From positions 2,117 to 66,116 of the forward strand of contig JBATSB010000010.1 in NCBI GenBank assembly GCA_049293015.1: a DNA stretch of 64,000 nucleotides, written 5' to 3'. This document shows positions 2,012-49,935 of the stretch, one piece after another. The translations under genes and the position numbers were made by a program. The notes beneath the pieces were generated by a model. The model was not told the origin of the DNA. It was given only the letters and a program-made list of their open reading frames with translations, and made no database searches. This DNA is from Ignavibacteria bacterium. Its GTDB lineage: Bacteria > Bacteroidota > Ignavibacteria > Tepidaquicellales > Tepidaquicellaceae. How positions within the stretch are numbered: position 1 is the stretch's first letter; every line of letters starts with the position of its first letter.

Positions 2012-3676
2012 ATGAAAAATAATACTGAGCCCAAAAAGAGCGCATCCAAATCTGAATGGAAGGAAGAAGCACTTAAAGCAAAGACGAACGGTATGAAATT
2101 TACTTCACTCAGCGGACGTGAACTTGACATCTGCTATACCCCCGAAGACAATAAAGAAACAAATTATTATAATGAGATAGGCTATCCGGGAGAATATCCT
2201 TACACCCGCGGAATTCATCACAATATGTACAGAGGCAAACTCTGGACTATGAGACAATTCGCAGGTTTTGGGACACCCGAAGATACCAATCAAAGATTTA
2301 AATATTTACTTGCACACGGTCAGACAGGGCTTTCAACTGCCTTTGATATGCCGACACTAATGGGTTATGATGCTGACGATGAAATTTCCGAAGGCGAAGT
2401 CGGAATTTGCGGCGTTGCGATTTCTTCTTTGCAGGATATGGAAATTCTCTTTGACGGAATTCCTCTTGATAAAGTCTCTACATCTATGACTATCAACTCC
2501 CCTGCTATTATGGTTTATGCATTTTATTTAGCAGTAGCTGAAAAGCAAGGCGTGCCTTTTGATAAATTAAGAGGTACTCTTCAGAACGACATTTTAAAAG
2601 AATACATTGCTCAGAAAGAATATATCTATCCGCCAAAAGAATCAATGAGAATCATTACTGATATGATAGAATATTCCACAAAGGAAGTTCCGCAGTTCAA
2701 TCCTGTTAGTGTCAGCGGCTATCACATCAGAGAAGCCGGCTCTACTGCTGCACAGGAACTCGCGTTCACACTTGCTGACGGATTTGCTTATATCGAAGCA
2801 TGTATAGAAAGAGGAATGGATGTCGATGATTTTGCTCCAAGGATCTCGCATTTCTTTAATTCACACTTAGACTTTTTTGAGGAGATAGCAAAGTTTAGAG
2901 CTGCTCGAAGAATCTACGCAAAGAGAATGAAAAATAAATACGGCGCGAAAAATCCTAAGTCATGGACTTTAAGATTTCATACTCAGACTGCCGGATGTTC
3001 ACTCACTGCTCAGCAGCCTGAAAATAATATTGTAAGAACAGCTATCGAAGCTCTTGCAGGTGTGCTCGGCGGAACTCAAAGTCTTCATACAAATTCAATG
3101 GATGAAACACTTGCATTGCCATCAGACAAAGCTGTTAAAATTGCATTGAGAACTCAGCAGATAATTGCTTATGAACACGGAGTAATAAATGTTGCAGATC
3201 CATTGGGCGGAAGTTATTATGTAGAAAAGCTGACTGACGACATCGAAGCAGAAGCGGAAAAATATTTTGATCTTATAGATGCACAGGGCGGCGTAATTCC
3301 GTGTATTGAAAATGGATTCTTCCAGAGAGAAATTGCAGATGCTGCATATAAGTATCAGCTTGAGCTTGATAAAAAAGAAAAGATCGTAGTTGGTATAAAT
3401 GATTTTGTAGAAGAAAATGAGAAGATCGATATTCCAATTCTTCAGATCTCAAAAGAAGTAGAAGAGAAACAGGTTAAGAGATTAAAAGAATTGAAAGCTT
3501 CACGAAATCAGGAAGAGGTCGATAATGCTCTAAAGCATTTAAGAAAAGTAGCAGAGGACGGAACTAACCTTATGCCTGCTGTACTTGACTGCGCAAGGAA
3601 ATATGTAACGCTTGGTGAAATGTGTGCTGAGCTGAAAGAGGTATTCGGAGTTTATGAAGAACAGGCAGTTTTTTAA
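2012..3676 (+). CDS. Acyl-CoA mutase large (substrate-binding) subunit, methylmalonyl-CoA mutase family, without a B12-binding domain
   Basis: 554 aa. [43 protein letters not shown] and RFHTQTAG are typical MCM/ICM alpha-chain motifs. The ORF track starts at TTG 2006; I prefer the ATG at 2012. Confidence 0.85.
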
Positions 3677-3730
3677 TTCTATCTGAAAGAAAGCTTTTAC
3701 TGAAATTTACTTCAAACCAAAAAGTGCTCG

Positions 3731-3886
3731 ATTCCAAACTCTCAGACTGTCCGAAAACAAAAATTAAAGTTTGCTTACAAGGTTGCCTCCAAGTCTCAAA
3801 GGCTCAAAGAAGCTTATTTTTAAAGTTTTTAAACTTTGAGTCTTTGAGTCTTAGAGGCAATTCCAATGTTTTCAGACCAGATGTCC
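3731..3886. repeat. Composite inverted-repeat element of the GCCTCYAAGRCTCAAAG family
   Basis: Arms GCCTCCAAGTCTCAAAGGCTCAAAG (3785-3809) and CTTTGAGTCTTTGAGTCTTAGAGGC (3834-3858) are reverse complements with a few mismatches. The outer arms CTCAGACTGTCCGAAAACA / TGTTTTCAGACCAGATGTCCGA also pair. Related copies lie at 21979-22059, 56001-56163, 62654-62703 and 63085-63101. Confidence 0.8.
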
Positions 3887-4056
3887 GATATGTATTTAAT
3901 TTAAAATTTTGAGCGGGATAATTCTCGCTCATTTTATTATTACTCAATTTTATTATAAGATCTATCAAAGATAAAAATTACATATACATTGTATCTGCCT
4001 GCCTGATTTCGATCATTATTTTTTTATCTTTTGAATTTTATTTCACTGATGGAAAA

Positions 4057-5535
4057 ATGGGTGTACCACTTGATGACACATGGATACATTTTCAGTTTGC
4101 TGATAATTTTGCACACGGAAATTTTTTTGAATATAACGTCGGTGAGCCAACTGCTGGAACCACTTCTCCTTTATATGTGATAATTATGGGATTAACCAGT
4201 TTTGTCATTCCCAATTTCATTGTTAATTCTCTGATCCTTTCCGGATTATTCTATATTCTGACATGTATTTTTGTTTACAAAATTTCATTATTCCTTTTTC
4301 AAAGCAAATATTCTTCCTTAAAAGAAGGTACATATTCATTTATCACCCCTGAAAAACTTTCACTCTTAGCTTCGATGCTTACAGTTTTTGCAGGGCGATT
4401 TGCCTGGGCTTCTATGTCAGGCATGGAAACGACTTTGTTTACATTTTTCACATTGGCAGGTGTTTATTTCCATTTGAAGAATTTACGGAATAATATTCTT
4501 ACATTACTACCTTCATTATTCTTTGCATTATCTGCAGTTCTTAGGCCGGAAGGTATGCTTTTATATTCAATTTGTGCTTTCGATATTACACTTAACTTAC
4601 TTAAAGATAGAGCATTTAAGCAATATTTCATAAAGTTCTTTACAGGTCTGATAATTTTTCTTTGCATTGTCCTTCCATACTTTATTTTTTCTTACTACAT
4701 AAGCGGTCATTTCTTTCCAAATACATTCCGCGGGCAGGGAGGTGGATTTATTTTTGTTCCAAATTTCACTTATTTGCGAATTGTTTCTATTTTCTTTTTA
4801 AGAGATAATTTTGTTGCAGCTACTTTATTCTTTATATTCATATTCTATTATTTCGGAAATCTTAAAAATTACTTAAAAGATATGAAATATATTAATTTGA
4901 TTGCACTATGGACAATATTTCTCCCGCTCATTTCATCTGTACTGATCCCAAACTGGCGTCATCACGTTAGATACACCATGCCTCTTATTCCATTTATTAA
5001 TATTATAGCCGTTTATTATCTTATTATTTTATTGAATAAAAATTTTCTTCATAAATTGAAAAACATTTTTTATTCAAAAAAATATGTACCTGCATTGATA
5101 GTATTGTTTTCATTTTTCTATTATTTCATTTATGCTGCCGCCTTAGGAAAAAATGTTGATAATATAAATTCACAGCAGGTTAAGATCGCTGAATGGGTAA
5201 AAAACAATGTCGGAAGAGATGAGACTATTGCGATTAACGATATTGGAGCGATTACATTTATCAGCAAAAACAGGATAATCGATATGGCAGGACTTGTTAC
5301 ACCTGAGATTCTGCAATACAGAAATTATACATGGGATGATAACCTGGACTCACTGAATTATCTATTAAAAAAAAATGATGTTAGCTATATTGTCATTTAT
5401 GATCACTGGTTCAAAGAATATCTGCAGAAATATGGTAACCAATTTACCTTTATAACCAGCGCTGTGCTTGAAGAAAACACAATCTGCGGCGGTATAGAAA
5501 TGAAAGTATACAAAACTAATTTCAGTATAAAATAA
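4057..5535 (+). CDS. Polytopic GT-C-like glycosyltransferase membrane protein (ArnT/PMT/arabinosyltransferase-like)
   Basis: 492 aa with many hydrophobic segments followed by a ~130-aa soluble C-terminal domain. An acidic PLDD motif sits near the N-terminus, as in GT-C first loops. It lies directly upstream of a UbiA-family polyprenyl-phosphate phosphoribosyltransferase. The start is uncertain (see finding). Confidence 0.55.
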   Translation: MGVPLDDTWIHFQFADNFAHGNFFEYNVGEPTAGTTSPLYVIIMGLTSFVIPNFIVNSLILSGLFYILTCIFVYKISLFLFQSKYSSLKEGTYSFITPEKLSLLASMLTVFAGRFAWASMSGMETTLFTFFTLAGVYFHLKNLRNNILTLLPSLFFALSAVLRPEGMLLYSICAFDITLNLLKDRAFKQYFIKFFTGLIIFLCIVLPYFIFSYYISGHFFPNTFRGQGGGFIFVPNFTYLRIVSIFFLRDNFVAATLFFIFIFYYFGNLKNYLKDMKYINLIALWTIFLPLISSVLIPNWRHHVRYTMPLIPFINIIAVYYLIILLNKNFLHKLKNIFYSKKYVPALIVLFSFFYYFIYAAALGKNVDNINSQQVKIAEWVKNNVGRDETIAINDIGAITFISKNRIIDMAGLVTPEILQYRNYTWDDNLDSLNYLLKKNDVSYIVIYDHWFKEYLQKYGNQFTFITSAVLEENTICGGIEMKVYKTNFSIK

Positions 5536-5537
5536 AT

Positions 5538-6425
5538 TTGAAAATAATAAAACTTATAGAATTAATCAGACCAAAGCAATGGATCAAAAATCTATTTGTC
5601 TTTGCTCCTATATTATTTGCAGGTAAACTGATGGATCTGCCAATGCTGCTTACAAACATCATTGCTTTTTTTGCTTTCTGCGGTATCTCAAGCAGTATTT
5701 ATGTTTTAAATGACATTGCCGATGTAGAATCTGACAGAGTGCATAAGAAAAAAAGATTCCGACCTCTTGCATCAGGTGACGTTACAATTCCTCAGGCAAA
5801 AATAATGTTTGTAATATTGTTAGTGATTACCATTCTTCTAAGTAGTTTGCTGCCTCCCCTTTTCATTGTTGCCATTACACTTTACTTCATTAACAATCTT
5901 CTTTACACTTTTAAAATAAAGAACATTGTACTTCTTGATGTATTTTCAATATCTGCAGGTTTTATTCTCAGAGTAGTAGCCGGTGCTTTTGCAATTGATG
6001 TCAGCGTTTCAAGCTGGATGATCATTACTACAATTTTCATTTCTCTCTTTCTTGGAATCTCTAAAAGAAGGGCAGAACTCTCCGGTCCCAATCAGGAAAA
6101 TCTCGAAAAGCAAAGAAAAGTATTAAGTGACTATGACGTTGTATTTGTAGATCAGATGAATACAATTGCTGCTACAGGTACTATCATCTCTTATGCTCTC
6201 TATACAGTTTCCGAAAAAGCAATTCAGGCTTTTCATTCTGAGATGCTCATATATACTACTCCATTTGTGATATATGGAATTTTTAGATATCTATTCCTTC
6301 TTCATAAAAAGAATCTTGGAGAAAGTCCTACTCAGATAGTGACAAGAGATATTCCGATTATTATAAATTCCCTAATCTGGCTGCTCTCATGCGCTTTGAT
6401 CATTTACAAAGGGAAATTTTTATAA
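5538..6425 (+). CDS. UbiA-family prenyltransferase, decaprenyl-phosphate phosphoribosyltransferase (DPPR synthase)-like
   Basis: 295 aa. It has the LIRPKQWIKNLFVFAP N-terminus, the NDIADVESDRVHKKKRFRPLASG (NDxxDxxxD) motif and multiple TM segments. The TTG start lies 2 nt after the upstream stop. Confidence 0.75.
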   Translation: MKIIKLIELIRPKQWIKNLFVFAPILFAGKLMDLPMLLTNIIAFFAFCGISSSIYVLNDIADVESDRVHKKKRFRPLASGDVTIPQAKIMFVILLVITILLSSLLPPLFIVAITLYFINNLLYTFKIKNIVLLDVFSISAGFILRVVAGAFAIDVSVSSWMIITTIFISLFLGISKRRAELSGPNQENLEKQRKVLSDYDVVFVDQMNTIAATGTIISYALYTVSEKAIQAFHSEMLIYTTPFVIYGIFRYLFLLHKKNLGESPTQIVTRDIPIIINSLIWLLSCALIIYKGKFL

Positions 6426-6429
6426 TTGA

Positions 6430-7368
6430 TTGAAACAGAACTCCGACATTTCAAATCCTGAAAAGAATTTATTTACTGTTTACAAAGCTGAACTTTTTCT
6501 ACTGTTCGTTACTTTGTCATGGGGTCTGTCATTTCCGTTAATAAAATTAACGTTAGAATATGTCTCGCCTGTGTTATTTAACTTTATCCGGTTCGCTTTA
6601 ACTCTGATTCTTTTTATAATCATTTTTTATAAAAAGATAAGACATATTAAATTTGGTGATCTAAGATATGGAATAATACTCGGCGTATTTATGATACTGG
6701 GTTTTGTCTTTCAGACAATTGGTCTGCAATATACTACAGCTTCCAAATCAGCTTTTATTACAGGTACAAATCTTATCTTCATTCCATTCATTCAATTTAT
6801 TATTTTAAAATCTAAGCCAAAATATTTTAATCTCATTAGTGCTCTGATCGTACTGACCGGGCTATTTATTCTTTCCGAATCATTTGAGATTGTTCCGAAT
6901 GTTGGTGATATTCTTACTATAATCTGTGCTTTTTTCTTTGCTGTTCATATCGTATTGCTGGATAAATATTCAGCAAAGTCCGATGTGAATTTTTTAATTT
7001 TCGGACAATTTCTGATCTCAACGGTTATATGTCTGGTCTTTGCTTTCTTTTATGAACACCTGATTCTTGATGAAACTAAATTTTCGGTCACACCAATTTT
7101 ATTAATAACACTTTTTTTCACAGTGGTATTTTCTACTTTGATAGGTATTGTTTTTATGACAAAGTTTCAGCGACTCACTACACCACTCAAAGCCGGTATT
7201 ATTTACAACATGGAATCAATATTTGCTTTGATCTTTGCTTACTTTATTTTAAATGAAATTATGAATTCAAATCAAATTATAGGTGCAATAATAATGTTGA
7301 TCGGATTAATTTTTTCAGAGATATTCGGAATTATAAACTTTAAAAATTTAATTGGAAAAAAGAATTAA
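6430..7368 (+). CDS. DMT-superfamily (EamA-like) transporter
   Basis: 312 aa with about ten hydrophobic segments in two EamA-like halves. TTG start. Confidence 0.7.
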
Positions 7369-7630
7369 AATTACTGTAAGAGGTTTTGTACAGGGAGTTG
7401 GTTTCAGATTTTTTACTCAGAGAATGGCAAACGAATTTGAAATCAAAGGCTTTGTAAAAAATATGTATAACGGAGATGTCGAAGCTGAAGCACAGGCAAC
7501 ACCAGATCATTTAAATGACTTTGTCTCAGAGTTAAAGATCGGTCCTCGAGGCTCTAAGATCACATCTGTTTTTGTAGATGAAATTCCTATGTCAGATGAA
7601 GTTCAGGAAGAAGATTTTATTATTTTATAA
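7352..7630 (+). CDS. acyP: Acylphosphatase
   Basis: 92 aa with the [13 protein letters not shown]...GFVKN..NGDVE signature. The TTG start overlaps the upstream gene by 17 nt. Confidence 0.8.
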
Positions 7631-7824
7631 TCTCCTGTTTTACTCATCTGGACTCACAATTTTTTTAAGAAAAAATATTTTATTAAAGTTAGAAGTAATT
7701 TTTTAAAAAAATCCCGCCTGTAATACATTGCCGTTAAGAATTCTTGAGAAATTGAAAAAATAAAATATTCTTGTCTGAGAAATTTGCGAAGCAAATTTTG
7801 AGTTGGATATTTTATTCCCCGCTC

Positions 7825-7876
7825 GTTCCCAAACTCCTGTTTGGGAACGCACTTGAATTTGAAACTCCGTTTCAAA
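7825..7876. repeat. Tandem hairpin pair: GTTCCCAAAC-TCCT-GTTTGGGAAC, then TTTGAAAC-TCC-GTTTCAAA
   Basis: Read directly. The same two-hairpin arrangement recurs at 47813-47870 (second hairpin partial) and 58042-58090. Confidence 0.8.
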
Positions 7877-8181
7877 AACATCTCCGGTAATTTATCACCA
7901 GCGAATATTTTTTTGTTTCTTTGGAGCTTGCCTCAGAAGGATCGTTCAAAAGAATGTTAGCAGGAAATTTGAATACTGAATTTAAAAATCAAACTTTTTT
8001 TGATCTGATACACTATAATTTAGAACTATATCCAAACCATATGTGTTGTGAAACCCATGCAACAAAACAAATCACGTCAAATTTGCAATTGACAATAAAC
8101 ATTTAAACTAATATTATTGTGAAACTTAAAATGAACCTATGACGAGACAATTGTTACTTATTCTTTAACAAATTAAGAAAA

Positions 8182-9132
8182 ATGCTGAATACCAGATCAC
8201 TAATCGTAACATTAGTTTTACTTTTCTTTTTTGCCGGAAATACTTACTCTCAAAATAATACTTATGATTTTCTTAGATTAAATGTAGGAGCACGTGCTTC
8301 TGCACTTGGGGGAAGTTTTGTCACAAATACCAATGATGTAAATGGTTTGTTCTATAATCCTGCATCTCTTTCGACAATTACGACTTCGCAGGCTTCCATA
8401 GGTTTTTATAAATATTTACTGGATATTAATTCCGGTAATCTTGCCTATGGACAGAAATTCAAAGACAAGGGTTATTTCGGAGGTACTGTAAAGTATTTTA
8501 ATTATGGCAGCTTTACTAAAAAAGACATTTCAGCAAATGATCTCGGGACTTTTAATGCAAATGACCTGGCGATTTCTTTGGGATACTCCAATGCTTTTCA
8601 GGAAAATTTTTATTACGGTGCTAACCTGAAGTTTATATATTCACAAATCGATGAATTCAATTCAACTGCAATAGCTGTAGATTTGGGTATGCTCTATATA
8701 ATTCCTTCCACTATGTGGAATTTTGGTATTAGCTTATTAAATGCCGGTACACAAATGAGTCAGTATGACAATACAAAAGAAGATCTTCCTCTCGATCTGA
8801 GAGTCGGTGTAAGTAAAAGACTCGAGCATCTGCCGGTAAGGATCAATTTTGAATTCAGTGATCTAACTCAGAGTGGTGAATCTTTTTGGGAAAATTTTAA
8901 GAACTTATCTGTCGGCGGTGAATTTGATTTTAGCGAGAACGTAAAATTCCGTATCGGATATGACAATGCTCAGAGACAGGATCTTAAGACAGGAAGTTCG
9001 ATCGGTATAGCAGGATTTTCTACAGGAATTGGATTTAATTTCCTTGAGAATTATTCTTTTGATTATGCTTTTAGTTCGATGGGAAATGTCGGAACGAATA
9101 ACAGGATAGATGTGGGATTTAAATTGAAATAA
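8182..9132 (+). CDS. porQ: T9SS outer-membrane beta-barrel, PorV/PorQ family (PorQ-like)
   Basis: 316 aa with a signal peptide. The YDFLRLNVGARASALGGSFV...NPASL N-terminal motif and the alternating beta-strand pattern ending ...DVGFKLK resemble PorQ. Five T9SS cargo genes lie in the same window. Confidence 0.55.
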   Translation: MLNTRSLIVTLVLLFFFAGNTYSQNNTYDFLRLNVGARASALGGSFVTNTNDVNGLFYNPASLSTITTSQASIGFYKYLLDINSGNLAYGQKFKDKGYFGGTVKYFNYGSFTKKDISANDLGTFNANDLAISLGYSNAFQENFYYGANLKFIYSQIDEFNSTAIAVDLGMLYIIPSTMWNFGISLLNAGTQMSQYDNTKEDLPLDLRVGVSKRLEHLPVRINFEFSDLTQSGESFWENFKNLSVGGEFDFSENVKFRIGYDNAQRQDLKTGSSIGIAGFSTGIGFNFLENYSFDYAFSSMGNVGTNNRIDVGFKLK

Positions 9133-9552: not shown

Positions 9553-11058
9553 TTATGCTGATTTTCTTATTGCAATTATTTTTTCCAACTTATTCATCAG
9601 CCACCTTTTGTAAAAGAATTCCTTATCATTGATTATTTTATCAAACAGGTTGGCTAAATCATAAAGATGATTGTTTTCGATTAGCAAAAATATTTGATTC
9701 AATCTTTTAAGGAATATTAACTTCATTTCTTTTTTCTCTTCTGATATAATCTTGTTCCTTCTAACATATAAATCATAACTTTTAATAATCTTTCCTGCTT
9801 CAAAATAATTACGATTCTCAAAATGTATTAATAGCTGGAGTTCGATGACATATTGCTTTAACTGATTATATGCAATTAAAGATTTGTTATAATGTGCCTG
9901 GAATTCATCCATTAATGATTGAGACTGCTTAATATTACCCTTAAAAAATTCCAGATAAGATTCAGAAAATATTTTCAGAATTTTTCGATATTCTTCTTTA
10001 AGACTAGAATTATACTTTTCAATAAAATCCGATGCCCATTCAATTTTTTCAATTTTTACTGAATGCATTAAAATACTTATATAAAGATCCGGAGAAAGAT
10101 ATTTATTTGTAGAGTTAATGTACAGCTTATTTCTCAGAATAAAATTATTGATCCTGAAAAGTTCATTATCAAAAAATAAAATATCATTATCCTTTTTTAA
10201 CTTTAGTATTATGAATGACATTTGTTTATGAAGATGATGAGATAGCTCATCATGTGTCATTTCTAATGAATGTCTTGAGAGTAATTTTAAATAATGTTGA
10301 AAGTTCTTTACCGATATTTTTACTTCTAAAAGATCGAGATATGAATTCAGCAAATATTTATATAACAACAAATAATCATCTTTTGAGCCTTTATCCGAAA
10401 AGGAATCAGCAAGAAAAAGAATAATATCATACACTGGTTTTCTCTTAATCTCAATATTATAATTTGAGTATAATGTGAAAAGATTTGTAAAATGAGTGAT
10501 CATTCGGAAATAGTAATTTGAAAATTCGATGTGCATTAATTTATTTATTTCCGTGTCAATCTTTTCCAATGATCTTTTGGTTTTTATTTTCTTACATGAA
10601 ATTAGGTAATTAATTTTTTGTATTTGAATTTCCGACTCATCATGCAGATATTCCGGATCAAATTTTTTATTACTCGCGGTATGATTATTTATGCAGCCAT
10701 AACTTAATTCATCCAATCCTCTTTCAGCAAGAGCTGAAATCAACATACAGCCATTGTTTCTTCTCTGAAAATATTTTAATTCAACAAACTTTTCCAATAG
10801 AAGATTTAAGTCCGATAAAATGCTTCGGATAGTATTATCGTTAAAAACTTTTTCTCCGTAGAGTGCAGAATAAATATTTTTCTTGGTAAAATCTTTGTCA
10901 TTAAAGTCCGGACAATACTTTACTATCTCCGTGAAAAGCTCTAAGAGTTTTTTATTTTGATTATGATAAGGCGAACATATAAACAAAGAAAATTCCTTCA
11001 GCTCTACTTTAGTTAGGGTTTGAATAATTTTTATTGTAGGATAATTTGTCAGTCTCAT
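9553..11058 (-). CDS. Hypothetical all-helical (repeat/TPR-like) protein
   Basis: 501 aa from the ATG at 11058; the ORF track begins 4 codons earlier at a TTG. It is K/N/I/L/E/F-rich, with no TM segment, P-loop or catalytic motif recognised. It is divergent from the secreted-protein cluster. Confidence 0.5.
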   Translation of the reverse strand: MRLTNYPTIKIIQTLTKVELKEFSLFICSPYHNQNKKLLELFTEIVKYCPDFNDKDFTKKNIYSALYGEKVFNDNTIRSILSDLNLLLEKFVELKYFQRRNNGCMLISALAERGLDELSYGCINNHTASNKKFDPEYLHDESEIQIQKINYLISCKKIKTKRSLEKIDTEINKLMHIEFSNYYFRMITHFTNLFTLYSNYNIEIKRKPVYDIILFLADSFSDKGSKDDYLLLYKYLLNSYLDLLEVKISVKNFQHYLKLLSRHSLEMTHDELSHHLHKQMSFIILKLKKDNDILFFDNELFRINNFILRNKLYINSTNKYLSPDLYISILMHSVKIEKIEWASDFIEKYNSSLKEEYRKILKIFSESYLEFFKGNIKQSQSLMDEFQAHYNKSLIAYNQLKQYVIELQLLIHFENRNYFEAGKIIKSYDLYVRRNKIISEEKKEMKLIFLKRLNQIFLLIENNHLYDLANLFDKIINDKEFFYKRWLMNKLEKIIAIRKSA

Positions 11059-11224
11059 ATCAAAATACAAATATTGTTTATAATATAGTTGAAATTAATA
11101 AAAAAATTTAATAAAAATAAACCAAATTATAATTACCTTCAAAATTTTTCATATCAGTTTTTCAATTCTGTAGTTTACAACTCTCATCCATTCTCATGAA
11201 ATTAGTAGTAAAAGAAAATCAGTT

Positions 11225-11419
11225 ATGAAAAAAATATTACTACTAACATTAATAATTCTGTTTACTTGCGTCCAAAACATTTCATCTGAAAATATTCTTT
11301 CACGGATAACTTATGACGAATGCACTTATGAAGAAATTATCTGCGATGAAAGCGGATGCACGAAATACATTTATTACTGTGACGGACGGCTTAAACAAGT
11401 AATCCCGGATTGGGATTAA
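11225..11419 (+). CDS. Small secreted Cys-rich protein (64 aa)
   Basis: A signal-like N-terminus MKKILLLTLIILFTCVQNISS is followed by 43 aa with four Cys (CTYEEIICDESGCTKYIYYC). No homologue recognised. Confidence 0.4.
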   Translation: MKKILLLTLIILFTCVQNISSENILSRITYDECTYEEIICDESGCTKYIYYCDGRLKQVIPDWD

Positions 11420-11456
11420 CCGGAAATATAGCTCCAAAAAAATTTAATATATCAAG

Positions 11457-11487
11457 AAAGGAGTAAATGATGATAAGACCACCGTAA
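11457..11487 (+). promoter_or_regulatory. Candidate leader-peptide uORF, copy 1: AAAGGAG + ATG ATG ATA AGA CCA CCG TAA (MMIRPP-stop)
   Basis: A strong SD-like AAGGAG lies 3-6 nt before tandem ATGs, and the ORF has 6 sense codons. The block is conserved at 13977-14006 with only synonymous differences. It lies 70 nt upstream of the CDS at 11558. Confidence 0.55.
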
Positions 11488-11557
11488 GAATTATTAAATA
11501 TTTTGATCAATTCAATTTTAATTAACAGTTTTAAACACTAATTTAAACTAAAAAAAA

Positions 11558-11932
11558 ATGTATAAAAAACTATTTATCCCGGCAATATTTATTATTGCAA
11601 TATTTTCTGCTCTTGTAATTAACAACAATATTTTTTCAAATACTCAATCTAATCCAGCTCCAACATTTCAAGTTACTGTTTACCAAACTGGTGGTTCTAC
11701 TATACAAGCCAATGCAGAAGTTATAGTTGAAAATTCTAATGGTAATACTGTCAAATCTGGGACCACTAATTCATCCGGAATAGTCAGTTGGAGTTGGGAT
11801 CAACCTTATGGAAATTATACTGTAAAGGCATGGTATCCAACTCGGCCACTTGATGGACAATCAGCCCAAAACACAGTAAATTACTCAGGATCAAGTATTT
11901 ATACTTCTGTTACATTAGGTCCAAATTATTAA
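11558..11932 (+). CDS. Small secreted single-domain beta-sandwich protein (CarboxypepD_reg/PEGA-like), C-terminus TLGPNY
   Basis: 124 aa with an N-terminal hydrophobic signal or anchor. The pattern ...[11 protein letters not shown]...[10 protein letters not shown] is typical of carboxypeptidase-regulatory-like folds. It is a paralogue of 14084..14452, sharing YPxxPLDGQSA and the terminal TLGPNY. Confidence 0.6.
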
Positions 11933-11944
11933 ATTTCAAATCAG

Positions 11945-11970
11945 GCAGGGAATTTTTTATTCCCTGCTTT
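11945..11970 (+). terminator. Intercistronic hairpin / possible attenuator (GCAGGGAAT-TTTTT-ATTCCCTGC + TTT)
   Basis: A 9-bp perfect stem lies 13 nt after the stop of 11558..11932 and 13 nt before the ATG of 11983. The structural counterpart is at 14463-14492. Confidence 0.55.
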
Positions 11971-11982
11971 AAAATATTTCTC

Positions 11983-13701
11983 ATGAAAAAAAAAATCTTT
12001 TTATTAATATTTATTCAATTTGTACTTGCACAAATTACCTTTACTCAAACTCCTATGTATTATCAAAATTACCCATTAGAATTAGATGGTAACAGGGAAC
12101 CGTTTCGTAAAGCAGGCATTCCGCTTATAACAGATTTAGATAAAGATGGACAAAAAGAAATAATAACATTTGCTGTAGACTATTATGAATTAATTAATCC
12201 ACCTTGTATGCTTCATATAGTAAGAAGTGATGGCTCTTCTTATCCAAACTTTCCTAAAGGATATAATGAATTAATTTTAGATATTGCTTCCGGAGATGTT
12301 AATAATGATGGTTTTTTAGATATTGCTATAAGGTTTACTCATTCCTTTGATGTTATCGATAGATTCGGAAATCATCTTTCTGGATTTCCGGTAAATTATA
12401 GTGATGGTGATATTAATCCAACGAATTTTATAAGTTTATATGATTTAGATAATGACAATAAACTTGAAATTATTGTAAATAGGGCAGGAGATATTTCAGT
12501 CTATAATTTTGATGGTACTTTGCGAAGTGGTTGGCCAAGATTAATATCCGGAAGAGCTACCTATAATCCTGCTATTGGAGATATTGATAATGATGGTTTT
12601 GCAGAAATTGTTTTAAGCTCTTTCAAATTCACAAACAACATTGTTGATTCCGGAGCTGTGCATGTCTTTAGACATAATGGTTTAGAGTTTTCAAATAATT
12701 TTCCAATATATTTTGATTCTACATATTTCTCTTGGAGTTCCTCTCCATCACTTTTTATAAATAAAAATAATTCTGATTCAACGTTTTTCCTTGTTCCTTT
12801 GGATAAAAACAGTTCATCCTCAGATAGACTTCATAAGTTTCTAAAAATAGATATAAATGGAAAAATATTAGAAAAAAAATATTATGTTGAAACAATGGAT
12901 TTTGGTACTTTGGTTATGGGAGATTTAAATATTGATGGTAAATTAGACTTTTCAACCGGATCACAATTTGGAACTTCTTTATCTGCCTTCGACAACACTC
13001 TTAAAAGAATTGAAGGTTGGCCTTCTTCAGGAAATGGTGAACATTATGCAACTTCTGTCATAGCTAAAATTTCAAATTCCAGTTCAATGAATATTATAAG
13101 TAATTCATGGTCTGCAGAGTCAGTTAGTGGAAATGGTTATATTTATGCCTACACTAGCAATGGTGTTATTTTACCATGGTCTCCATTAAGACCTTATGGA
13201 TTGGTTAAGGGTATTTCAGTTTCAGATTTAAATAATGATGGTTCTGTAGAACTAATAGCAACAGCAACACAACAAAGAAAATTTTATCTTCACGTTTGGA
13301 CTATTCCTGGAATTCAGTTTGCAAATGAGAATTTCCCCTGGCCTCAATACGGTCACGACAGATATCGTACAAATCAATACGGCTTTATTCCTCCTGATGA
13401 ACCTGTTGGAATACTCCCAATAAGCAGCAATGTACCGGATAAGTTTTCCCTCTACCAAAACTTTCCAAATCCTTTTAATCCAACTACAAATATTAAATTT
13501 GATTTAATAAATTCCGGTAACGTAACATTAAAAATTTACGATGCATTAGGAAGGGAAATTTCTACTCTTGTAAATGAAAGACTAAACATCGGGACTTATC
13601 AGATAGTATTTGACGGAAGTAATTTTACTAGCGGGATTTATTTTTATAGTCTGGAGACAGAGAGTTTTAGAGAGACAAAGAAGTTTATTTTGTTGAAGTA
13701 A
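11983..13701 (+). CDS. FG-GAP/VCBS-repeat beta-propeller protein with T9SS C-terminal sorting domain
   Basis: 572 aa with a signal peptide. Repeated Dx[DN]xDGxxE/D[IL] calcium-loop-like motifs are present ([66 protein letters not shown]). The tail reads [17 protein letters not shown] then [17 protein letters not shown]...GIYFY...KKFILLK. Confidence 0.8.
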
Positions 13702-13749
13702 AGTCCTAAAGTTTAAATATTCAGTAAATTTTATAAATGTTTTTTTAAA

Positions 13750-13808
13750 GGCGTTGGTGGATAAAGCAACCAACGCCGACTGGAATTTTGAAACACCGAC
13801 AACGGCTA
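13750..13808. repeat. Hairpin GGCGTTGGT...ACCAACGCC plus TTTTGAAACACCGACAACGGCT end-motif (long-hairpin family relative)
   Basis: Read directly. The end-motif matches 9459-9480. Confidence 0.55.
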
Positions 13809-13976
13809 AATAAGCGACAGAAATTTTTAAAAATATAAGGAATTTAACGCAAATTCAAACATTATCGCATATTTCAATAATATTTTTATATCCGGATAAC
13901 CGTCAAATCAAAAAAAGTGTCCCTAACATGAATAAATAATTTCTCCTAAATTGTATTTAACTTAAAAATAAAACAT

Positions 13977-14006
13977 AAGGAGTAAATGATGATCAGACCA
14001 CCATAA
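13977..14006 (+). promoter_or_regulatory. Candidate leader-peptide uORF, copy 2: AAGGAG + ATG ATG ATC AGA CCA CCA TAA (MMIRPP-stop)
   Basis: Same block as 11457-11487. The differences ATA>ATC and CCG>CCA are both synonymous. It lies 77 nt upstream of the ATG at 14084. Confidence 0.55.
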
Positions 14007-14083
14007 GGAAATTGAAAAAAAGTAAACAAATAAGTATTTATTTATCAATTAAAAAATTAATTTCAGAAAGGAAAAAAATCTAT

Positions 14084-14452
14084 ATGAAAAAATTCAAAGT
14101 AATAGCAGCAATAGTGTTAATTGCAGTAGCAGGATTCTTTGCAACTCAGATAATTTCATCAGATGCAAATGCAGATCCGAATCCACTTCCCCACTTTAAT
14201 ATCAAAGTATTACAATATTCCACTTCATATCCTGTGGAAAATGCTCAGGTCAAGTATTTGACAGGAGGAAATAATGTTTATACAGGTACCACTGATGCAA
14301 ATGGATGGTGTTATACAACTTTGGCAACAGGAACATATAATGTATATGTATATTACCCTGCTCAACCATTGGATGGACAGTCAGCAAATTTGCTAAATTA
14401 TAATCATGATGGAAATGATGATGAAACTTTAACCTTAGGACCAAATTATTAA
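14084..14452 (+). CDS. Small secreted beta-sandwich protein, paralogue of 11558..11932, C-terminus TLGPNY
   Basis: 122 aa from the ATG at 14084 (MKKFKVIAAIVLIAVAGFFA signal or anchor). The ORF-track start at 14012 adds 24 K/I/S-rich residues upstream of the signal peptide and overlaps the leader, so I reject it. Confidence 0.6.
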   Translation: MKKFKVIAAIVLIAVAGFFATQIISSDANADPNPLPHFNIKVLQYSTSYPVENAQVKYLTGGNNVYTGTTDANGWCYTTLATGTYNVYVYYPAQPLDGQSANLLNYNHDGNDDETLTLGPNY

Positions 14453-14462
14453 TTTTAAAAAC

Positions 14463-14492
14463 AGGCAGGCATATATTTTATGTCTGCCTTTA
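14463..14492 (+). terminator. Intercistronic hairpin / possible attenuator (AGGCAGGCAT-loop-ATGTCTGCCT + TTT)
   Basis: A 10-bp stem whose only non-Watson-Crick position is a G-T, which would be a G-U wobble in plus-strand RNA. It occupies the same position as 11945-11970 and shares the 5' CAGGCAGG. Confidence 0.55.
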
Positions 14493-14505
14493 TTAATTCA
14501 ATTTT

Positions 14506-16278
14506 ATGAAAATTATATTTGTAAATATTTTTTTGTTTTGTATAATTCATTCCGGCATTTCCCAAACTCCTGTTTATAAAACCGGATTTCCGATTGTTAT
14601 TGATTCTAACAGAAGTCCTTATCAAAAAGCAGGATTGCCTTTAATTACAGATTTCGAAAAAGACGGTCAAAAAGAAATAATCTTTTTTACAATAGATTAT
14701 TTTGGAATAACAAATCCAAATTATCTGTATGTAACTAATAATGACGGATCTAATTATCCAAATTTTCCTAAAGGATATAATGAACTTATATTAGATGTCA
14801 ATTCAGGAGATGTTGACGGGGATGGATTTCTTGATATTGTTTTAAGATTTTCATTTTCATTTGATGTTATAGACAGATTTGGGAATCACCTACCTGGTTT
14901 TCCTGTGAATTATAGTGATGGAGAATTTACTCCATTAAGACCAATAAATATTTATGATCTGGATAATGATGGAAAGCTTGAAATTATAGTATCAAAAAAA
15001 GGAGAACTTTCAGTATTTAATTATAATGGAACATTAAGACAAGGCTGGCCAAGATACATACCGGGTTCTACAAAAACAAATGCAGCTATCGGCGATATTG
15101 ATAATGACGGTATTGCAGAAATTATAGCTGCTACTGTAAGAAAAATTCCCACCGGCGGATCAGATTCATCAGCTTTAAGGATTTTCAGAGAAAACGGAGA
15201 AAATTTTTCTAATGAATGGCCGGTATATTCAGATTCACTTTATGAAAATTCGGGAGCCTCCCCGACTCTGATAATTAATAGAAATTTTACGGATTCAACA
15301 TATATTTTAATGTCAACTAAAAGAACAAATATTGGCGGTATCAGTAATAACCGTCTTACAAAATTTAATATTTATGGTCAGATTATTGACAGAGGATATG
15401 CAAATGTCTTAAATGGATTAGGAACTATTGTAATTGGAGATTTGGACAGAGATGGGAAACCCGAATATTCAAATGGAGCACAAGGCGATCCATATCTATT
15501 ATTATATTCAAATGAATTAGTTAAACTTTCAGGCTGGCCAAATGAAGGAGTTGGAGAACATTGGGCTACACCTTTAATTGGAAAATTAACGCATTCCAAT
15601 AATTTGAATGTTACAGATAACAACTGGTCAGCCTTTGCACCTAACGGATTTGGAAATGTCTTTGCTTATAATAAAGACGGTTCACCTTTACCCTGGTCTC
15701 CATTAAGACCGGAGGGAATAGTAGAAGGTATTGCTTTATCAGATATTGATAATAATGGATCAGTTGAATTAATTGCAACTTCTTCTAAAGGATACGAAAC
15801 CTATATAGATAAAAATGGATCAGTTGGTTTAACAACAACTTCTTCAAAAAGAATCGCAACCTATCTTCATATTTGGTCATTGGATGGAATTCCTTTTTCA
15901 CATGAAAATTTCCCATGGTCCATGTATGGTCACGACCGCTACAGAACTAATCAATACGGATTCATACCACCCGACGAACCCGTCGGCATTCTCCCAATAA
16001 GCAACAATGTACCGGATAAGTTTTCCCTCTATCAAAACTTTCCAAATCCATTTAATCCAACTACAAATATTAAATTTGATTTGATAAATTCAGGTAATGT
16101 AAGTTTAAAAATTTACGATGCATTAGGAAGAGAAATTTCTACTCTTGTAAATGAAAGGCTAAATATCGGAACATATCAGATAGTATTTGACGGAAATAAT
16201 TTTACCAGCGGAATTTATTTTTATAGTATTGAGACAGAGAATTTCAGAGAGACGAAGAAGTTTATTTTGTTGAAGTGA
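14506..16278 (+). CDS. FG-GAP/VCBS-repeat beta-propeller protein with T9SS C-terminal sorting domain (paralogue of 11983..13701)
   Basis: 590 aa with the same repeat motifs and tail. The last ~290 nt are about 92% identical to the paralogue. It contains a 60-nt in-frame tandem duplication at 15754-15873. Confidence 0.8.
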   Translation: MKIIFVNIFLFCIIHSGISQTPVYKTGFPIVIDSNRSPYQKAGLPLITDFEKDGQKEIIFFTIDYFGITNPNYLYVTNNDGSNYPNFPKGYNELILDVNSGDVDGDGFLDIVLRFSFSFDVIDRFGNHLPGFPVNYSDGEFTPLRPINIYDLDNDGKLEIIVSKKGELSVFNYNGTLRQGWPRYIPGSTKTNAAIGDIDNDGIAEIIAATVRKIPTGGSDSSALRIFRENGENFSNEWPVYSDSLYENSGASPTLIINRNFTDSTYILMSTKRTNIGGISNNRLTKFNIYGQIIDRGYANVLNGLGTIVIGDLDRDGKPEYSNGAQGDPYLLLYSNELVKLSGWPNEGVGEHWATPLIGKLTHSNNLNVTDNNWSAFAPNGFGNVFAYNKDGSPLPWSPLRPEGIVEGIALSDIDNNGSVELIATSSKGYETYIDKNGSVGLTTTSSKRIATYLHIWSLDGIPFSHENFPWSMYGHDRYRTNQYGFIPPDEPVGILPISNNVPDKFSLYQNFPNPFNPTTNIKFDLINSGNVSLKIYDALGREISTLVNERLNIGTYQIVFDGNNFTSGIYFYSIETENFRETKKFILLK

Positions 16279-16433: not shown

Positions 16434-17720
16434 TTATCTTCCCTTCATTCTGTGAGAAACATTGATCCTGTTTTTTTTCAGATTGGCAACGATCTTATCG
16501 ACTTCAGGAATTGCATGATTAAAATATTTTTTCAAACCCCTGCAAAGATAGTTAAGTCCGGGCTCACCATCTGGCGTAAGTATGATCCTGTTCTTTGGAC
16601 ATTCACCGTAGCAATCAGTAAGGAATTCACACTTCATGCAATACTCAGGAAGATAATCAGATTTGGCAGTTCCGAATTTTGTCTGTGATTCTGAAAAAAC
16701 CATCTCAGCAAGATTATTTTCCATTACATTGCCAACCTTATATTCGGGATAAACATAATGGTCGCATGAATAAACACTTCCTTCATTTTCAACGGCAAGA
16801 CCCTTGCCGCAGAATCCGCTGTAGATGCAAACCTGAGATGGCATTCCGAGATGCTGAGCTACAAGAGTTTCTATATGGTTTACAAGAACTTTCCCAACAT
16901 CGCGGTTAAGCCATTCATCAAATACCTTTGAAAGAAAATATCCATAGTCATCAGGATCAACGGACCAATCGGTAACAATTGAATCAGGGTGATCCGGACG
17001 GGCTTCCGGAGATCCGTCTTTTGGAAGTTTTGAAACATCCCAGGTATGAGGAGCTGTTGTTTCAAAACCCTTATATTCTACGATCGGAATAAACTGAATA
17101 TAAGTCGAACCTATTTCACGTCTTAAGAATCTGTAAACATCAAGCGGACGTTTTGCATTTAAACGGTTGACACAAGTGAGTGTGTTGAATGGAACGCGGT
17201 ACTTTTTCAATAGCTTGATCCCATTCATGACAAGATCAAAAGTCGGTTTTCCGTTTTTAGTAATGCGGTAAGCATTATGTATATCGCGTGGACCATCTAT
17301 GCTGATACCGACAAGCCAGTTGTTTTCTTTAAGAAACTTACACCAGTCATCATCCAATAATATTCCATTCGTCTGAAGGTCATTTGATATTTTCTGACCG
17401 GGTTTGGAATACTTTTTCTGAAGCTCAGTTATTTTCTTAAAATAGTTCAAGCCAAGCATGGTTGGTTCTCCACCCTGCCATGAAAATACAATTTCATCAG
17501 CCGTGACGCCTTCAATATATTGACTGATAAAATTTTCAAGTACCTCATCAGTCATTTTCCCTTTTCCGGGACCATCGGGAAGATCTTCCTTGTCGAGATA
17601 GTAACAATATGTGCAGTCAATGTTGCAAGTCGAACCGCCGGGTTTTGCCATCACGTGAAATCTTCTTTGTGCCGGTTGTGTATGACTTTCTGATTGATTA
17701 TAGTTATTATCCAAATTCAT
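16434..17720 (-). CDS. Radical SAM/SPASM enzyme, anaerobic sulfatase-maturating enzyme (anSME/AslB/ChuR) family
   Basis: 428 aa. It has FHVMAKPGGSTCNIDCTYCYY (the CxxxCxxC cluster in the anSME-typical context), GGEPTM, and C-terminal Cys clusters including CMKCEFLTDCYGEC (SPASM). Confidence 0.8.
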   Translation of the reverse strand: MNLDNNYNQSESHTQPAQRRFHVMAKPGGSTCNIDCTYCYYLDKEDLPDGPGKGKMTDEVLENFISQYIEGVTADEIVFSWQGGEPTMLGLNYFKKITELQKKYSKPGQKISNDLQTNGILLDDDWCKFLKENNWLVGISIDGPRDIHNAYRITKNGKPTFDLVMNGIKLLKKYRVPFNTLTCVNRLNAKRPLDVYRFLRREIGSTYIQFIPIVEYKGFETTAPHTWDVSKLPKDGSPEARPDHPDSIVTDWSVDPDDYGYFLSKVFDEWLNRDVGKVLVNHIETLVAQHLGMPSQVCIYSGFCGKGLAVENEGSVYSCDHYVYPEYKVGNVMENNLAEMVFSESQTKFGTAKSDYLPEYCMKCEFLTDCYGECPKNRIILTPDGEPGLNYLCRGLKKYFNHAIPEVDKIVANLKKNRINVSHRMKGR

Positions 17721-20987: not shown

Positions 20988-21049
20988 GGACATTTGTCCT
21001 ATCAAAATTGTTATATATAGAAACTTAACAAATCCGGAGGGGAAAATGA

Positions 21050-21084
21050 AAAAGCCGGTCAATAATATTGTCCGGCTTTTTTTA
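21050..21084 (+). terminator. Intrinsic terminator after 18321..20987 (conserved module)
   Basis: AAAAGCCGGTCAATAATATTGTCCGGCTTTTTTTAT is almost identical to 9151-9187. Confidence 0.7.
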
Positions 21085-21387
21085 TGTCAAATTCCCGGAA
21101 ATATATTTTCGTACTAATATCAAAATATCAATTTCTATCCGGATTTAAAGTATCAGTACTTCAATGAGAATGATAACTATTATTCAGCTAATAAATGTTT
21201 TCTTTTTGAAATTTTCGGAATTTCCTATTTAATAAAATTTATTAAAATAAATATTTTGAAATTCCCTTTCCTTTTACACCATTACATTCTCTAATTATTT
21301 ACCATTGCGACAAATGAAAAAGTATAATTTCTATTAAGTTTTATCTGAAAAAGAATTAAGTTATTTTTACAACGAATAATAATTTTT

Positions 21388-48864: not shown

Positions 48865-49935
48865 ATGAAAATTATTATAAATTTATTTATTCTGCTTCTA
48901 GTAAGTACCGGTCTGTATTCACAAAACGCATCGACTTACTTTCCGGCAAATACCGGTTATAAATGGTTTTATAAAAATACTCCTCTCGACTCTTTAAGTA
49001 ATCCAAATTATAACTTATCGACATATCAGGTCGATTCATTCGCAACCAATGTGAATTATAACGGACTGCCTGCATCACTGGTTTTATCACAATCGGGTCT
49101 GACAAATATTAATCAACAGGGATTGTTTACAGATTCAGTTTTTTATAATTTTCAGTCAACCAATGGTTTCTATTTTCTTAATCCTTTAAGTTTTATTAAT
49201 TCTATTCCTGTTTTTGATTCAGTTGCGTTTATTCAGTTTCTCAGATCGTTTGAAGGATGGTATAGTTATTACAGATTTGCGCAGACTGTAAATGTTCCTT
49301 ATACACTTTTCTCAAGAGATACAACTGTAACATTTGATTCTCTTACACTTCCGCTCAGAGTTTCTGCTACAGGAAGGAGACTTAATGATCAGACTATTTC
49401 AACTGTCAACGGAAATTATAATTGCAAAAAGTTTTTAATCACTTTTGGAATTAGTTATGGACTTCTTCCACCGCTTATTTATATTCCGATTGTCAGCATA
49501 CCCGATACAGTTTATATTGCTCAAAATGTCTGGATTGTAAAAGATATCATTCCATCTATTAGTGTTGATTTAAATACAATTGGGATTGATCTGGCATTTA
49601 CTATTCCGGGCAGTTTAAAAGAGCTTACTCAAAATACTATAGGTATATCCGGTCAAAATATTTTTAATCCGGAAAGTTTTTCTCTTGGTCAGAATTATCC
49701 AAATCCCTTTAATCCAAACACAGTTATCAATTACAATATTGTTAAATCAGATTTTATTTCTCTGAAAGTTTTTGACATACTCGGTAATGAAGTTGCTGTT
49801 CTTGTAAATGAAAAACAAAATGCGGGAAGTTATTCAGTGGAATTTGATGGAGCAAGTCTGCCTAGCGGGGTTTATTATTACAGACTCAGTTCAGGTGATT
49901 TTAATGATGTGAAAATGATGACGCTGATAAAATAA
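48865..49935 (+). CDS. T9SS-secreted protein of unknown function
   Basis: 356 aa with a signal peptide. The C-terminus reads LGQNYPNPFNPNTVINY...GVYYYRL...KMMTLIK. Confidence 0.75.
   Translation: MKIIINLFILLLVSTGLYSQNASTYFPANTGYKWFYKNTPLDSLSNPNYNLSTYQVDSFATNVNYNGLPASLVLSQSGLTNINQQGLFTDSVFYNFQSTNGFYFLNPLSFINSIPVFDSVAFIQFLRSFEGWYSYYRFAQTVNVPYTLFSRDTTVTFDSLTLPLRVSATGRRLNDQTISTVNGNYNCKKFLITFGISYGLLPPLIYIPIVSIPDTVYIAQNVWIVKDIIPSISVDLNTIGIDLAFTIPGSLKELTQNTIGISGQNIFNPESFSLGQNYPNPFNPNTVINYNIVKSDFISLKVFDILGNEVAVLVNEKQNAGSYSVEFDGASLPSGVYYYRLSSGDFNDVKMMTLIK

Follow-up and report, generated by a model that had tools for sequence, protein, structure and literature searches.

A conserved Shine-Dalgarno-led five-codon open reading frame precedes tandem secreted-protein operons in Ignavibacteria

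Within the 64-kb stretch of Ignavibacteria DNA analysed here (the window; G+C 33%), a strong Shine-Dalgarno (SD) sequence leading a minute upstream open reading frame (uORF), M-I-R-P-P-stop, stands before each of two paralogous gene pairs (B and C) and recurs, with its frame preserved, before homologous operons in other Ignavibacteria metagenome-assembled genomes (MAGs) and metagenome contigs. The ORF, its SD, its position, its frame-preserving conservation, the lack of RNA structure around it and, within one species, a concentration of ORF-altering population mutations are direct observations. On this sequence evidence, we judge the proposition that the block is a selected, translated regulatory ORF to be evenly balanced, and hold any specific downstream mechanism with confidence well short of that.

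The second of the two copies (copy 2) comprises an AAGGAG SD at 13977..13982 and the uORF ATGATGATCAGACCACCATAA at 13986..14006, identified on the forward strand by direct reading, mismatch search and comparison with orthologues, which carry AAGGAGG at the SD position. Copy 1 lies on the same strand, with its AAGGAG at 11458..11463 (extended form AGAAAGGAG) and its uORF, ATGATGATAAGACCACCGTAA, at 11467..11487; in both copies AAGGAG is followed by TAA and then ATG. Allowing three mismatches, copy 1 was exactly the one further match to the uORF in the 64 kb (0/100 shuffles gave any match), and a profile hidden Markov model of the block found no third copy in the window. The two uORFs differ at two third positions, ATC/ATA (Ile) and CCA/CCG (Pro), both synonymous, and the 31-nt block running from AAGGAG to TAAG is identical at 29/31 positions, compared to 30% identity over the 60 nt 5' of it (random expectation 28%). 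From the uORF stop to the ATG of B is 77 nt in copy 2 (ATG 14084) and 70 nt in copy 1 (ATG 11558). The initial annotation, which had reported the SD and uORF at 13977-14006, 77 nt before the ATG at 14084, with another copy in the equivalent position before a paralogous operon and an almost wholly diverged leader, is thereby confirmed, the downstream proteins being 38% (B) and 58% (C) identical.

Its reading of the ORF as MMIRPP-stop holds for an SD-led conserved uORF and is revised in length and peptide. In the window the first ATG is spaced only 3 nt from the SD and the second (13989 / 11470) 6 nt; because the orthologues' only ATG comes 6-9 nt after the SD, we take the conserved ORF to be five codons from the second ATG. 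The likely start in copy 2 is therefore 13989, giving MIRPP-stop, and by comparison among the orthologues the conserved unit is MIRxP-stop, with Pro-Pro specific to certain lineages. The TTG at 14012, earlier dismissed as a spurious start for the downstream gene B2, is indeed not its start, since B homologues begin MKK... at the position of ATG 14084. TTG-extended B-type annotations (e.g., the 141-aa P0003) are accordingly wrong, and gene callers miss what would be a conserved functional ORF.

Orthologous operons were gathered through B protein homology after strict DNA-pattern scans had failed. The pattern GGAG-N2-7-ATGATGATHMGNCCNCCNTAA gave 0 matches in 185,579 species genomes, and a single JGI metagenome match (locus L006; related loci are cited by L number) was GC-rich and unrelated; the strict pattern missed the orthologues by requiring the double ATG, Pro-Pro and TAA, all of them peculiar to certain lineages. 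In most homologous leaders the element took the form AAGGAGG, 6-9 nt, ATG, four codons and a stop. Outside the window 17 distinct intact versions were recovered, each with an SD, a 6-9 nt gap and a five-codon ORF, under the consensus M-[I/T/S]-R-[P/S/A]-P-stop, whose shared features are Arg3 and, mostly, Pro5 followed by the stop. MIRPP was encoded by the window copies, L023, L024 and L033/34, and MIRSP by L009/11, L016, L017, L019, L020 and L030-32, with MIRPL (L014), MIRSL (L015), MIRST behind a weakened SD (L021/22), MSRSP (L017:92) and MTRAP (L020:263) also represented. Pro5-stop was present in 13/17 versions, the exceptions having Leu or Thr, and Pro-Pro in only 5/17; Ser-Pro was the commonest pair, and Pro-Leu, Ser-Leu, Ser-Thr and Ala-Pro also occurred.

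Across these leaders the Ile codon was ATA, ATC or ATT, the Pro codons CCA, CCG or CCT and the stop TAA, TAG or TGA, and the AGA codon of Arg3 was invariant. The use of every Ile codon, of three Pro codons and of every stop answers the codon-level check on related leaders that had been proposed at the outset, and this frame-preserving variation before homologous B-C operons supports the earlier suggestion that the uORF is under selection, as against chance or mere descent. The cross-species comparison is better evidence for such selection than are the two in-genome copies. Most telling for conservation at the level of the frame, as far as sequence can indicate it, is L020:263-280 (ATG ACT AGA GCG CCG TAA), where the flanks are unrelated and B belongs to a divergent subfamily, and where SD, length, Arg3 and Pro5 are nonetheless kept; MSRSP-stop at L017:92 likewise retains length, Arg3 and Pro5. 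Wherever present, the uORF lies 62-94 nt 5' of B, with gene A or a C gene alike as its upstream neighbour, and since this position is held whatever the neighbour, the uORF belongs with B. The exception is L024, where the uORF is 184 nt 5' of the C gene and B is truncated: at L024:1058-1260 the MIRPP uORF ends in a TGA that overlaps the ATG (ATGA) of a 59-aa B remnant devoid of a signal peptide, with a C-type gene after the remnant and a truncated gene A with a strong SD upstream.

Variation within a single species also pointed to the ORF. Seven contigs with an identical B protein, from the species of protein P0007, were aligned over 5.7 kb and showed only 8 variable columns (L009 coordinates 3600-8713, 5.1 kb), 3/8 of them inside the 18-nt uORF, with zero variation among the seven contigs in the next 2.8 kb (leader, B and C). 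The three changes convert ATG to ATA, convert CCA to CTA (P5L) and delete the G of TAG, leaving an ORF of 22 codons; all abolish the Pro-stop configuration, and the SD is never affected. By our own calculation, random placement of 8 sites would put at least 3 in 18 of ~5100 positions with a chance of ~1e-6. Four uORF alleles segregate (MIRSP-stop, MIRSL-stop, ATA-start and the stop-loss 22-codon form, the last carried by L008) among L008-L013 and L015 at L009 coordinates 5889-5906, with the A, B and C genes otherwise identical. Because the loss-of-function target offered by the operon itself (>2 kb, B plus C) is untouched, selection in this species seems specific to the uORF, a pattern expected of a regulatory element and comparable to the deregulation of inducible erm genes by mutations in their leaders. 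If the ORF is translated and regulatory, the start-loss, P5L and stop-loss alleles that segregate on otherwise identical operons would constitute a natural experiment, one that metatranscriptomes could read.

The SD itself stands out against its genomic background. Among 29 long ATG-start ORFs of the window, each surveyed over 30 nt upstream, AGGAG or GGAGG preceded 0/29, the upstream regions being A/T-rich as in Bacteroidia, and a weak AAGGAAAA-type SD preceded only 2/29. The only intergenic strong SDs correctly spaced from an ATG on either strand of the 64 kb were those of the two uORFs, and in ~89 kb of related loci strong SDs before real starts were almost all those of uORFs, the remainder preceding gene A (two lineages) or B itself (two distant uORF-less homologues, L026 and L028). 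In Bacteroidia, ribosomes ignore SDs, the anti-SD being sequestered by bS21, bS18 and bS6, and rpsU (bS21) is the one strong-SD gene, read by bS21-free ribosomes; Chlorobia show the same rpsU signature, and Ignavibacteria fall outside the scope of that work (PMC7797042, PMC9976891). A separate survey found ~32% of genes in class Ignavibacteria to be SD-bearing (PMC10783764). The uORF shares with rpsU autoregulation an SD far stronger than the background of a mostly SD-less setting, although the rpsU SD drives the main gene and reports bS21-free ribosomes, and the likeness to our element extends to SD scarcity in the window only. By analogy with the rpsU setting of Bacteroidia, a conserved strong SD on a five-codon ORF is notable; if the ORF is translated and regulatory, it would represent a second natural use of SD/anti-SD pairing, besides rpsU, in SD-poor Bacteroidota-related bacteria.

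Several observations adjoin this survey. Window starts examined for their lack of an SD include 8182, 16434-17720(-), 25186-26904(-) and 48865. A Bacteroidetes-type TAnnTTTG motif was seen at about -18 of 43051(-), -39 of 62544(-), -30 of 2006 and -25 of 18321, and a good sigma70-type pair, TTGACA-N17-TATTAT, upstream of 8182. Other SD-led mini-ORFs (L025:2153, L026:1750, L008:3100, window 49375 and window 21036) were rejected as chance occurrences inside coding regions or a terminator hairpin; at window 21036-21085, GGAGG..ATG is part of a terminator hairpin (AAAAAGCCGG...CCGGCTTTTTT) following the gene for an 888-aa type IX secretion system (T9SS) protein, with no mini-ORF. A resemblance of AGATCACC within the uORF to the 16S rRNA 3' tail (GAUCACC) was also set aside: it is absent from the Pro-Pro versions and from L020:263, and we treat it as a by-product of the R-S-P codons.

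Folding and alignment revealed no structure through which the leader might act. The 77 nt between the copy 2 uORF stop and B2 (14007..14083, forward strand) are A/T-rich, very C-poor and free of ATG, and the copy 2 leader has a minimum free energy of -6.7 kcal/mol against a shuffle mean of -6.8. Leader energies were at or above the shuffle mean in 11/13 leaders, and RNAalifold predicted 0 consensus pairs across the 13. Rfam 15 returned no match at the gathering threshold in the window except two tRNAs, and none at E<=1 in 11100-14600. Two apparent features did not generalize, namely a hairpin between the SD and the uORF 3' part, confined to L017/L020/L033 types, and a CTCC ~30 nt 5' of the SD, found in the window copies only. 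Judged from sequence and predicted folding, hairpin-switch attenuators, riboswitches and erm/cat-type leaders that sequester the ribosome-binding site (RBS) are excluded, and since the leader has neither stable or conserved structure nor an Rfam match, ribosome occupancy is left as the plausible signal. At the start of one contig (L014:1-100), a terminator-like hairpin (CCGGAGTCT...AGACTACGG with ATTTTTT) comes after ATGCTGATGATCAAGTAA (possibly MIK-stop), ~30 nt before a B-type gene; this leader, whose SD region would lie beyond the contig end, may be a variant with a real attenuator.

In Escherichia coli, Pro-Pro and Pro-stop are established slow steps of translation, the latter reflecting slow termination at a C-terminal proline. 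We infer that the uORF is translated, that it terminates slowly and that it affects B-C expression. The strong SD would load ribosomes onto the five-codon ORF M-I-R-(P/S)-P-stop (here MIRPP-stop, from 13989), where peptidyl-tRNA(Pro) in the P site opposite the stop would be released slowly and, in the present genome, Pro-Pro would add a slow peptide-bond step. The ribosome would then dwell on the segment from SD to stop, and this occupancy is what we propose as the regulatory signal to the B-C genes and to the unstructured leader of 62-94 nt before them. Possible outlets include altered access of decay or termination factors (RNases, Rho) to a leader left protected or exposed, A-site cleavage with decay, or the passing of ribosomes to the start of B, which has no SD. 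If translated and regulatory, the element would offer a minimal model for sequence-dependent slow termination.

A more ambitious form of this proposal, which we consider quite unlikely, would make MIRxP-stop a new class of minimal five-residue termination-arrest peptide and, in a lineage that otherwise makes scant use of SDs, an SD-dependent sensor of ribosome state that couples it to expression of an amplified family of T9SS surface proteins. The sensed state could be the availability of anti-SDs or ribosomes free of bS21 (as for rpsU), or else the capacity of release factors or prolyl-tRNA, and point mutations in the 18-nt ORF would give populations a route to re-tune expression.

Several points weigh against a translated regulatory uORF. 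Peptide identity is not absolute: some intact ORFs have Leu or Thr for Pro5, and in the equivalent position of L027, a distant homologue (B protein 30% identical), stands an SD-led MKKAPT-stop. The ORF is dispensable, having been lost or degraded in L001-3, L004, L005, L007, L010/13 and L025/29; L025/L029 and L007 resemble deletions, L004 and L005 have no ORF, and in a third paralogue (L001-3; B protein also WAT71_-tagged) the block has decayed to ATAATAAGACCGATGTATAG in a leader otherwise close to that of copy 2. Five residues are too few to reach the exit-tunnel constriction used by classical arrest peptides and, with no intervening structure over the 62-94 nt to B, no known mechanism couples uORF and B directly. 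In addition, most orthologues carry between uORF and B a promoter-like TT[TA]ACA-N16/17-TAWWAA, which stops 17-26 nt short of the B ATG and persists where the uORF is deleted (L025, L029 and L026); B may thus have its own promoter 3' of the uORF and often be transcribed without it. In copy 1 the corresponding sigma70-like motif, TTAACA-N16-TAAACT (11522..11549, forward strand), ends 8 nt before the B1 ATG and is predicted as a possible internal promoter, and in copy 2 and its closest relatives, L001 and L004, a convincing motif is lacking (weak or absent). On the sequence as it stands, the likeliest arrangement is that transcripts from upstream (from gene A, the preceding unit or the intergenic region) carry the uORF, possibly beside shorter transcripts that begin after it.

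Identity between the two window copies could, by itself, also reflect gene conversion. The C genes are 90% identical over their last 333 nt (the T9SS sorting domain; 13369-13701 vs 15946-16278) against 68% over the whole gene, which points to gene conversion or to unequal crossing-over of the tandem units, and a contig from another sample (L035:941-1381) joins an identical B1 and copy-1 leader to copy-2-type upstream sequence (C 3' end plus hairpin, ~90% identical), the switch in similarity (vs window 13640-14010 and 11440-11600) falling at the uORF block. Recombination among the units is real.

The main rival explanation, unlikely in our estimation, holds that the peptide is irrelevant and that the SD and a minimal ORF merely dock 30S or 70S ribosomes on the 5' leader, either stabilizing the mRNA as STAB-SD does or passing ribosomes on, through re-initiation or 70S scanning, to the start of B, which has no SD. 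Within the block it is the SD that is best conserved, and the leaders, no more structured than shuffles and mostly ATG-free, would suit such a role. Where the uORF is present, the SD of B is weak or missing, and the uORF-less L026 and L028 carry a strong SD directly on B; however, the uORF-less L005, L007 and L025 gained none. The retention of an SD-led six-codon ORF with a different peptide at L027, and the ATGA overlap at L024, would also be expected if ribosomes are simply being delivered. What docking leaves unexplained is the invariance of AGA at Arg3 and the keeping of Pro5 in paralogues otherwise diverged in nucleotides and flanks (L020:263), together with population variants that strike start, Pro5 and stop and never the SD.

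We regard as distinctly improbable a role of the block at the DNA level, as an operator or as the upstream element of a promoter between it and B, in which case its ORF-like appearance would be incidental and the uORF absent from the B mRNA. Its basis is the promoter-like motif described above, kept where the uORF is deleted and lying 17-26 nt before B in most orthologues and 8 nt before it in copy 1, and the conserved divergently transcribed neighbour (505 aa in the window) that could encode a regulator. However, the distance from block to -35-like hexamer (13, 16, 18, 21, 22, 29 or 34 nt) varies and follows no helical phase, dyad symmetry is absent from the block, and a good downstream motif is lacking in copy 2 and its closest relatives. 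Variation in the block preserves SD-ATG spacing, ORF length and any one of three stops, and L020:263 retains the ORF rather than the nucleotide sequence.

A polyproline sensor dependent on EF-P, in which Pro-Pro-stop stalls when EF-P activity or prolyl-tRNA is limiting, would fit Pro-Pro-stop in both window copies, L023, L024 and L033/34 and the general slowness of these steps in E. coli, but with Pro-Pro in so few of the distinct intact versions this cannot be the conserved function, and we consider it very improbable. Barely tenable is a functionless relic whose copies stay alike through recent duplication, or through gene conversion among tandem operons, since, despite the homogenized C 3' ends, the switch at the block in L035 and the decayed third paralogue, conservation with frame-preserving changes spans species-level divergence (B proteins 55-68% identical) and neutral decay does not account for so much ORF-altering polymorphism within a 5-kb region that otherwise does not vary.

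Comparison with characterized systems places a translated uORF of this type within the general kind of bacterial leader ORFs, although by its sequence it departs from the defining features of each known family. Nearly all characterized bacterial examples rely on hairpin switches in the RNA, on long arrest peptides that contact the tunnel or on drug binding, whereas the present element has five codons, conserved residues and no RNA structure. Our searches of the literature, on the peptide strings and on leader mini-ORFs of Ignavibacteria or Bacteroidota, turned up no account of it. Nearest in logic is TnaC of the E. coli tna operon, likewise an SD-led leader ORF, its own C-terminus being ..R-P-stop, in which the ribosome is held at termination with peptidyl-tRNA(Pro) opposite the stop (as proposed here) and occupancy sets downstream expression with no leader hairpin switch; a TnaC paper, PMC8429421, relates to the slow termination at proline known from E. 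coli. Unlike the five-residue element, TnaC has 24 residues, makes tunnel contacts (W12, D16), responds to free tryptophan, is specific for UGA and release factor 2 and masks a Rho loading site. Neither a nascent chain of that length nor stop or release-factor specificity was found in the element, which uses TAA, TAG and TGA, and neither a ligand nor, in the A/T-rich and very C-poor leader, a rut site is apparent from the sequence.

Leaders of the trpL/pheL/hisL type differ on both their hallmarks, since the 13 folded leaders yielded no terminator/antiterminator hairpins and M-I-R-x-P contains no codon run and precedes genes for a secreted immunoglobulin (Ig)-like protein and an FG-GAP/T9SS protein rather than a biosynthetic operon. 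The short drug-sensing leaders (cat86 MVKTD, cmlA MSTSKNAD, the MRLR core of ErmDL, MsrDL and ToiL) are also very short SD-led ORFs in 5' leaders, in which a few residues near the peptidyl-transferase centre decide stalling; however, they melt an RBS-hiding or terminator hairpin or block Rho, and precede resistance or stress genes. The element has no such hairpin, B lying 62-94 nt away in unstructured RNA, and Pfam and NCBIfam searches of B and C pointed to secreted structural-type proteins and to no resistance determinant. Consecutive prolines, the motif on which EF-P-type regulation turns, are not conserved (5/17).

STAB-SD of Bacillus thuringiensis cryIIIA, and mRNA stabilization by ribosomes stalled in the ermC leader, resemble the element in having a near-perfect SD (GAAAGGAGG-type) far 5' of the main start, unused for the main ORF, in the leader of a gene for a secreted or abundant protein. 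STAB-SD, which counters the action of a 5'-exonuclease, needs no ORF, whereas here the SD was always accompanied by an ATG at 6-9 nt and a five-codon ORF of conserved start, length and stop. The lambda bar minigenes and the pentapeptide minigenes (23S rRNA E-peptide) are likewise SD-led ORFs of 2-5 codons, the former also beginning AUG AUA and the latter having the length optimal for the E-peptide effect, but these act by toxicity through peptidyl-tRNA drop-off or by laboratory cis macrolide resistance, are not known as conserved operon leaders and differ in peptide consensus.

All of the operon genes lie on the forward strand of the window. Unit 1 comprises gene A (11225..11419), encoding a 64-aa small signal-peptide protein 5' of uORF copy 1, gene B1 (11558..11932; 124 aa, paralogue of B2) and gene C1 (11983..13701; 572 aa, FG-GAP and T9SS-sorted, paralogue of C2). 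Unit 2 comprises gene B2 (14084..14452), annotated as WAT71_00670 among the NCBI proteins of the Ignavibacteria MAG and encoding a 122-aa small secreted protein with a signal-peptide-like N-terminus, and gene C2 (14506..16278), whose 590-aa product has FG-GAP repeats and, at its C-terminus, a T9SS sorting domain. Copy 1 is thus preceded by gene A, and copy 2 by the end of C1 and a GC-rich hairpin. Between units, the B genes are 60% and the C genes 68% identical in DNA. Pfam and NCBIfam searches matched C to FG-GAP and Por_Secre_tail and gave B a weak CarboxypepD_reg-like match below the Pfam cut-off, which suggests a beta-sandwich, Ig-like fold; an exact-sequence look-up of the C2 protein found no record. 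On this sequence evidence the family of B-C operons, each pairing a small secreted, putatively Ig-like protein with a T9SS-exported FG-GAP protein, is tandemly amplified in an Ignavibacteria clade.

Hairpins also separate the genes of each unit, with a terminator-like hairpin and T-rich tail at 14463..14489 between B2 and C2 and, by direct reading, GCAGGGAA/TTCCCTGC followed by TTTAAAATATTT at 11945..11967 between B1 and C1, both with a T-rich tail and on the forward strand. These may act as partial terminators that set the B:C expression ratio. The GC-rich hairpin at 13750-13777 (GGCGTTGGT ... ACCAACGCC), 50 nt past the C1 stop, preceded by a T-run and kept in L035, may be a unit-separating terminator, a clean T-tail being absent from its forward strand.

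An A-type gene lies 5' of the uORF at several orthologous loci. It is variable (window 11225-11419; L009:5616-5837; L023:2018-2236), being Cys-rich in the window and bearing a WW(I/K)Y(V/E)Y motif elsewhere, and it has a strong SD, AAAGGAGGAA, in two lineages and none in the window; Pfam, NCBIfam and PDB sequence searches gave nothing usable for it. The A-uORF-B-C module has as its conserved, divergently oriented neighbour a gene for a helical protein of 505-521 aa (window 9553-11070 (-); L008:3856-5421 (-)), a candidate regulator for which Pfam, NCBIfam and PDB sequence searches found no match. A radical SAM/SPASM gene adjoining unit 2 (16434-17720 (-)) was considered as a link to RiPPs (peptides made by the ribosome and modified after translation) and rejected: it is an anaerobic sulfatase maturase (TIGR03942, E=4.5e-148) and, since its synteny with the operon does not extend to other species, has no relation to the uORF. 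In the P0007 species the entire module lies between orthologues of window genes 48865-49935 and 51059-52327, and this different location indicates that the module has moved as a unit.

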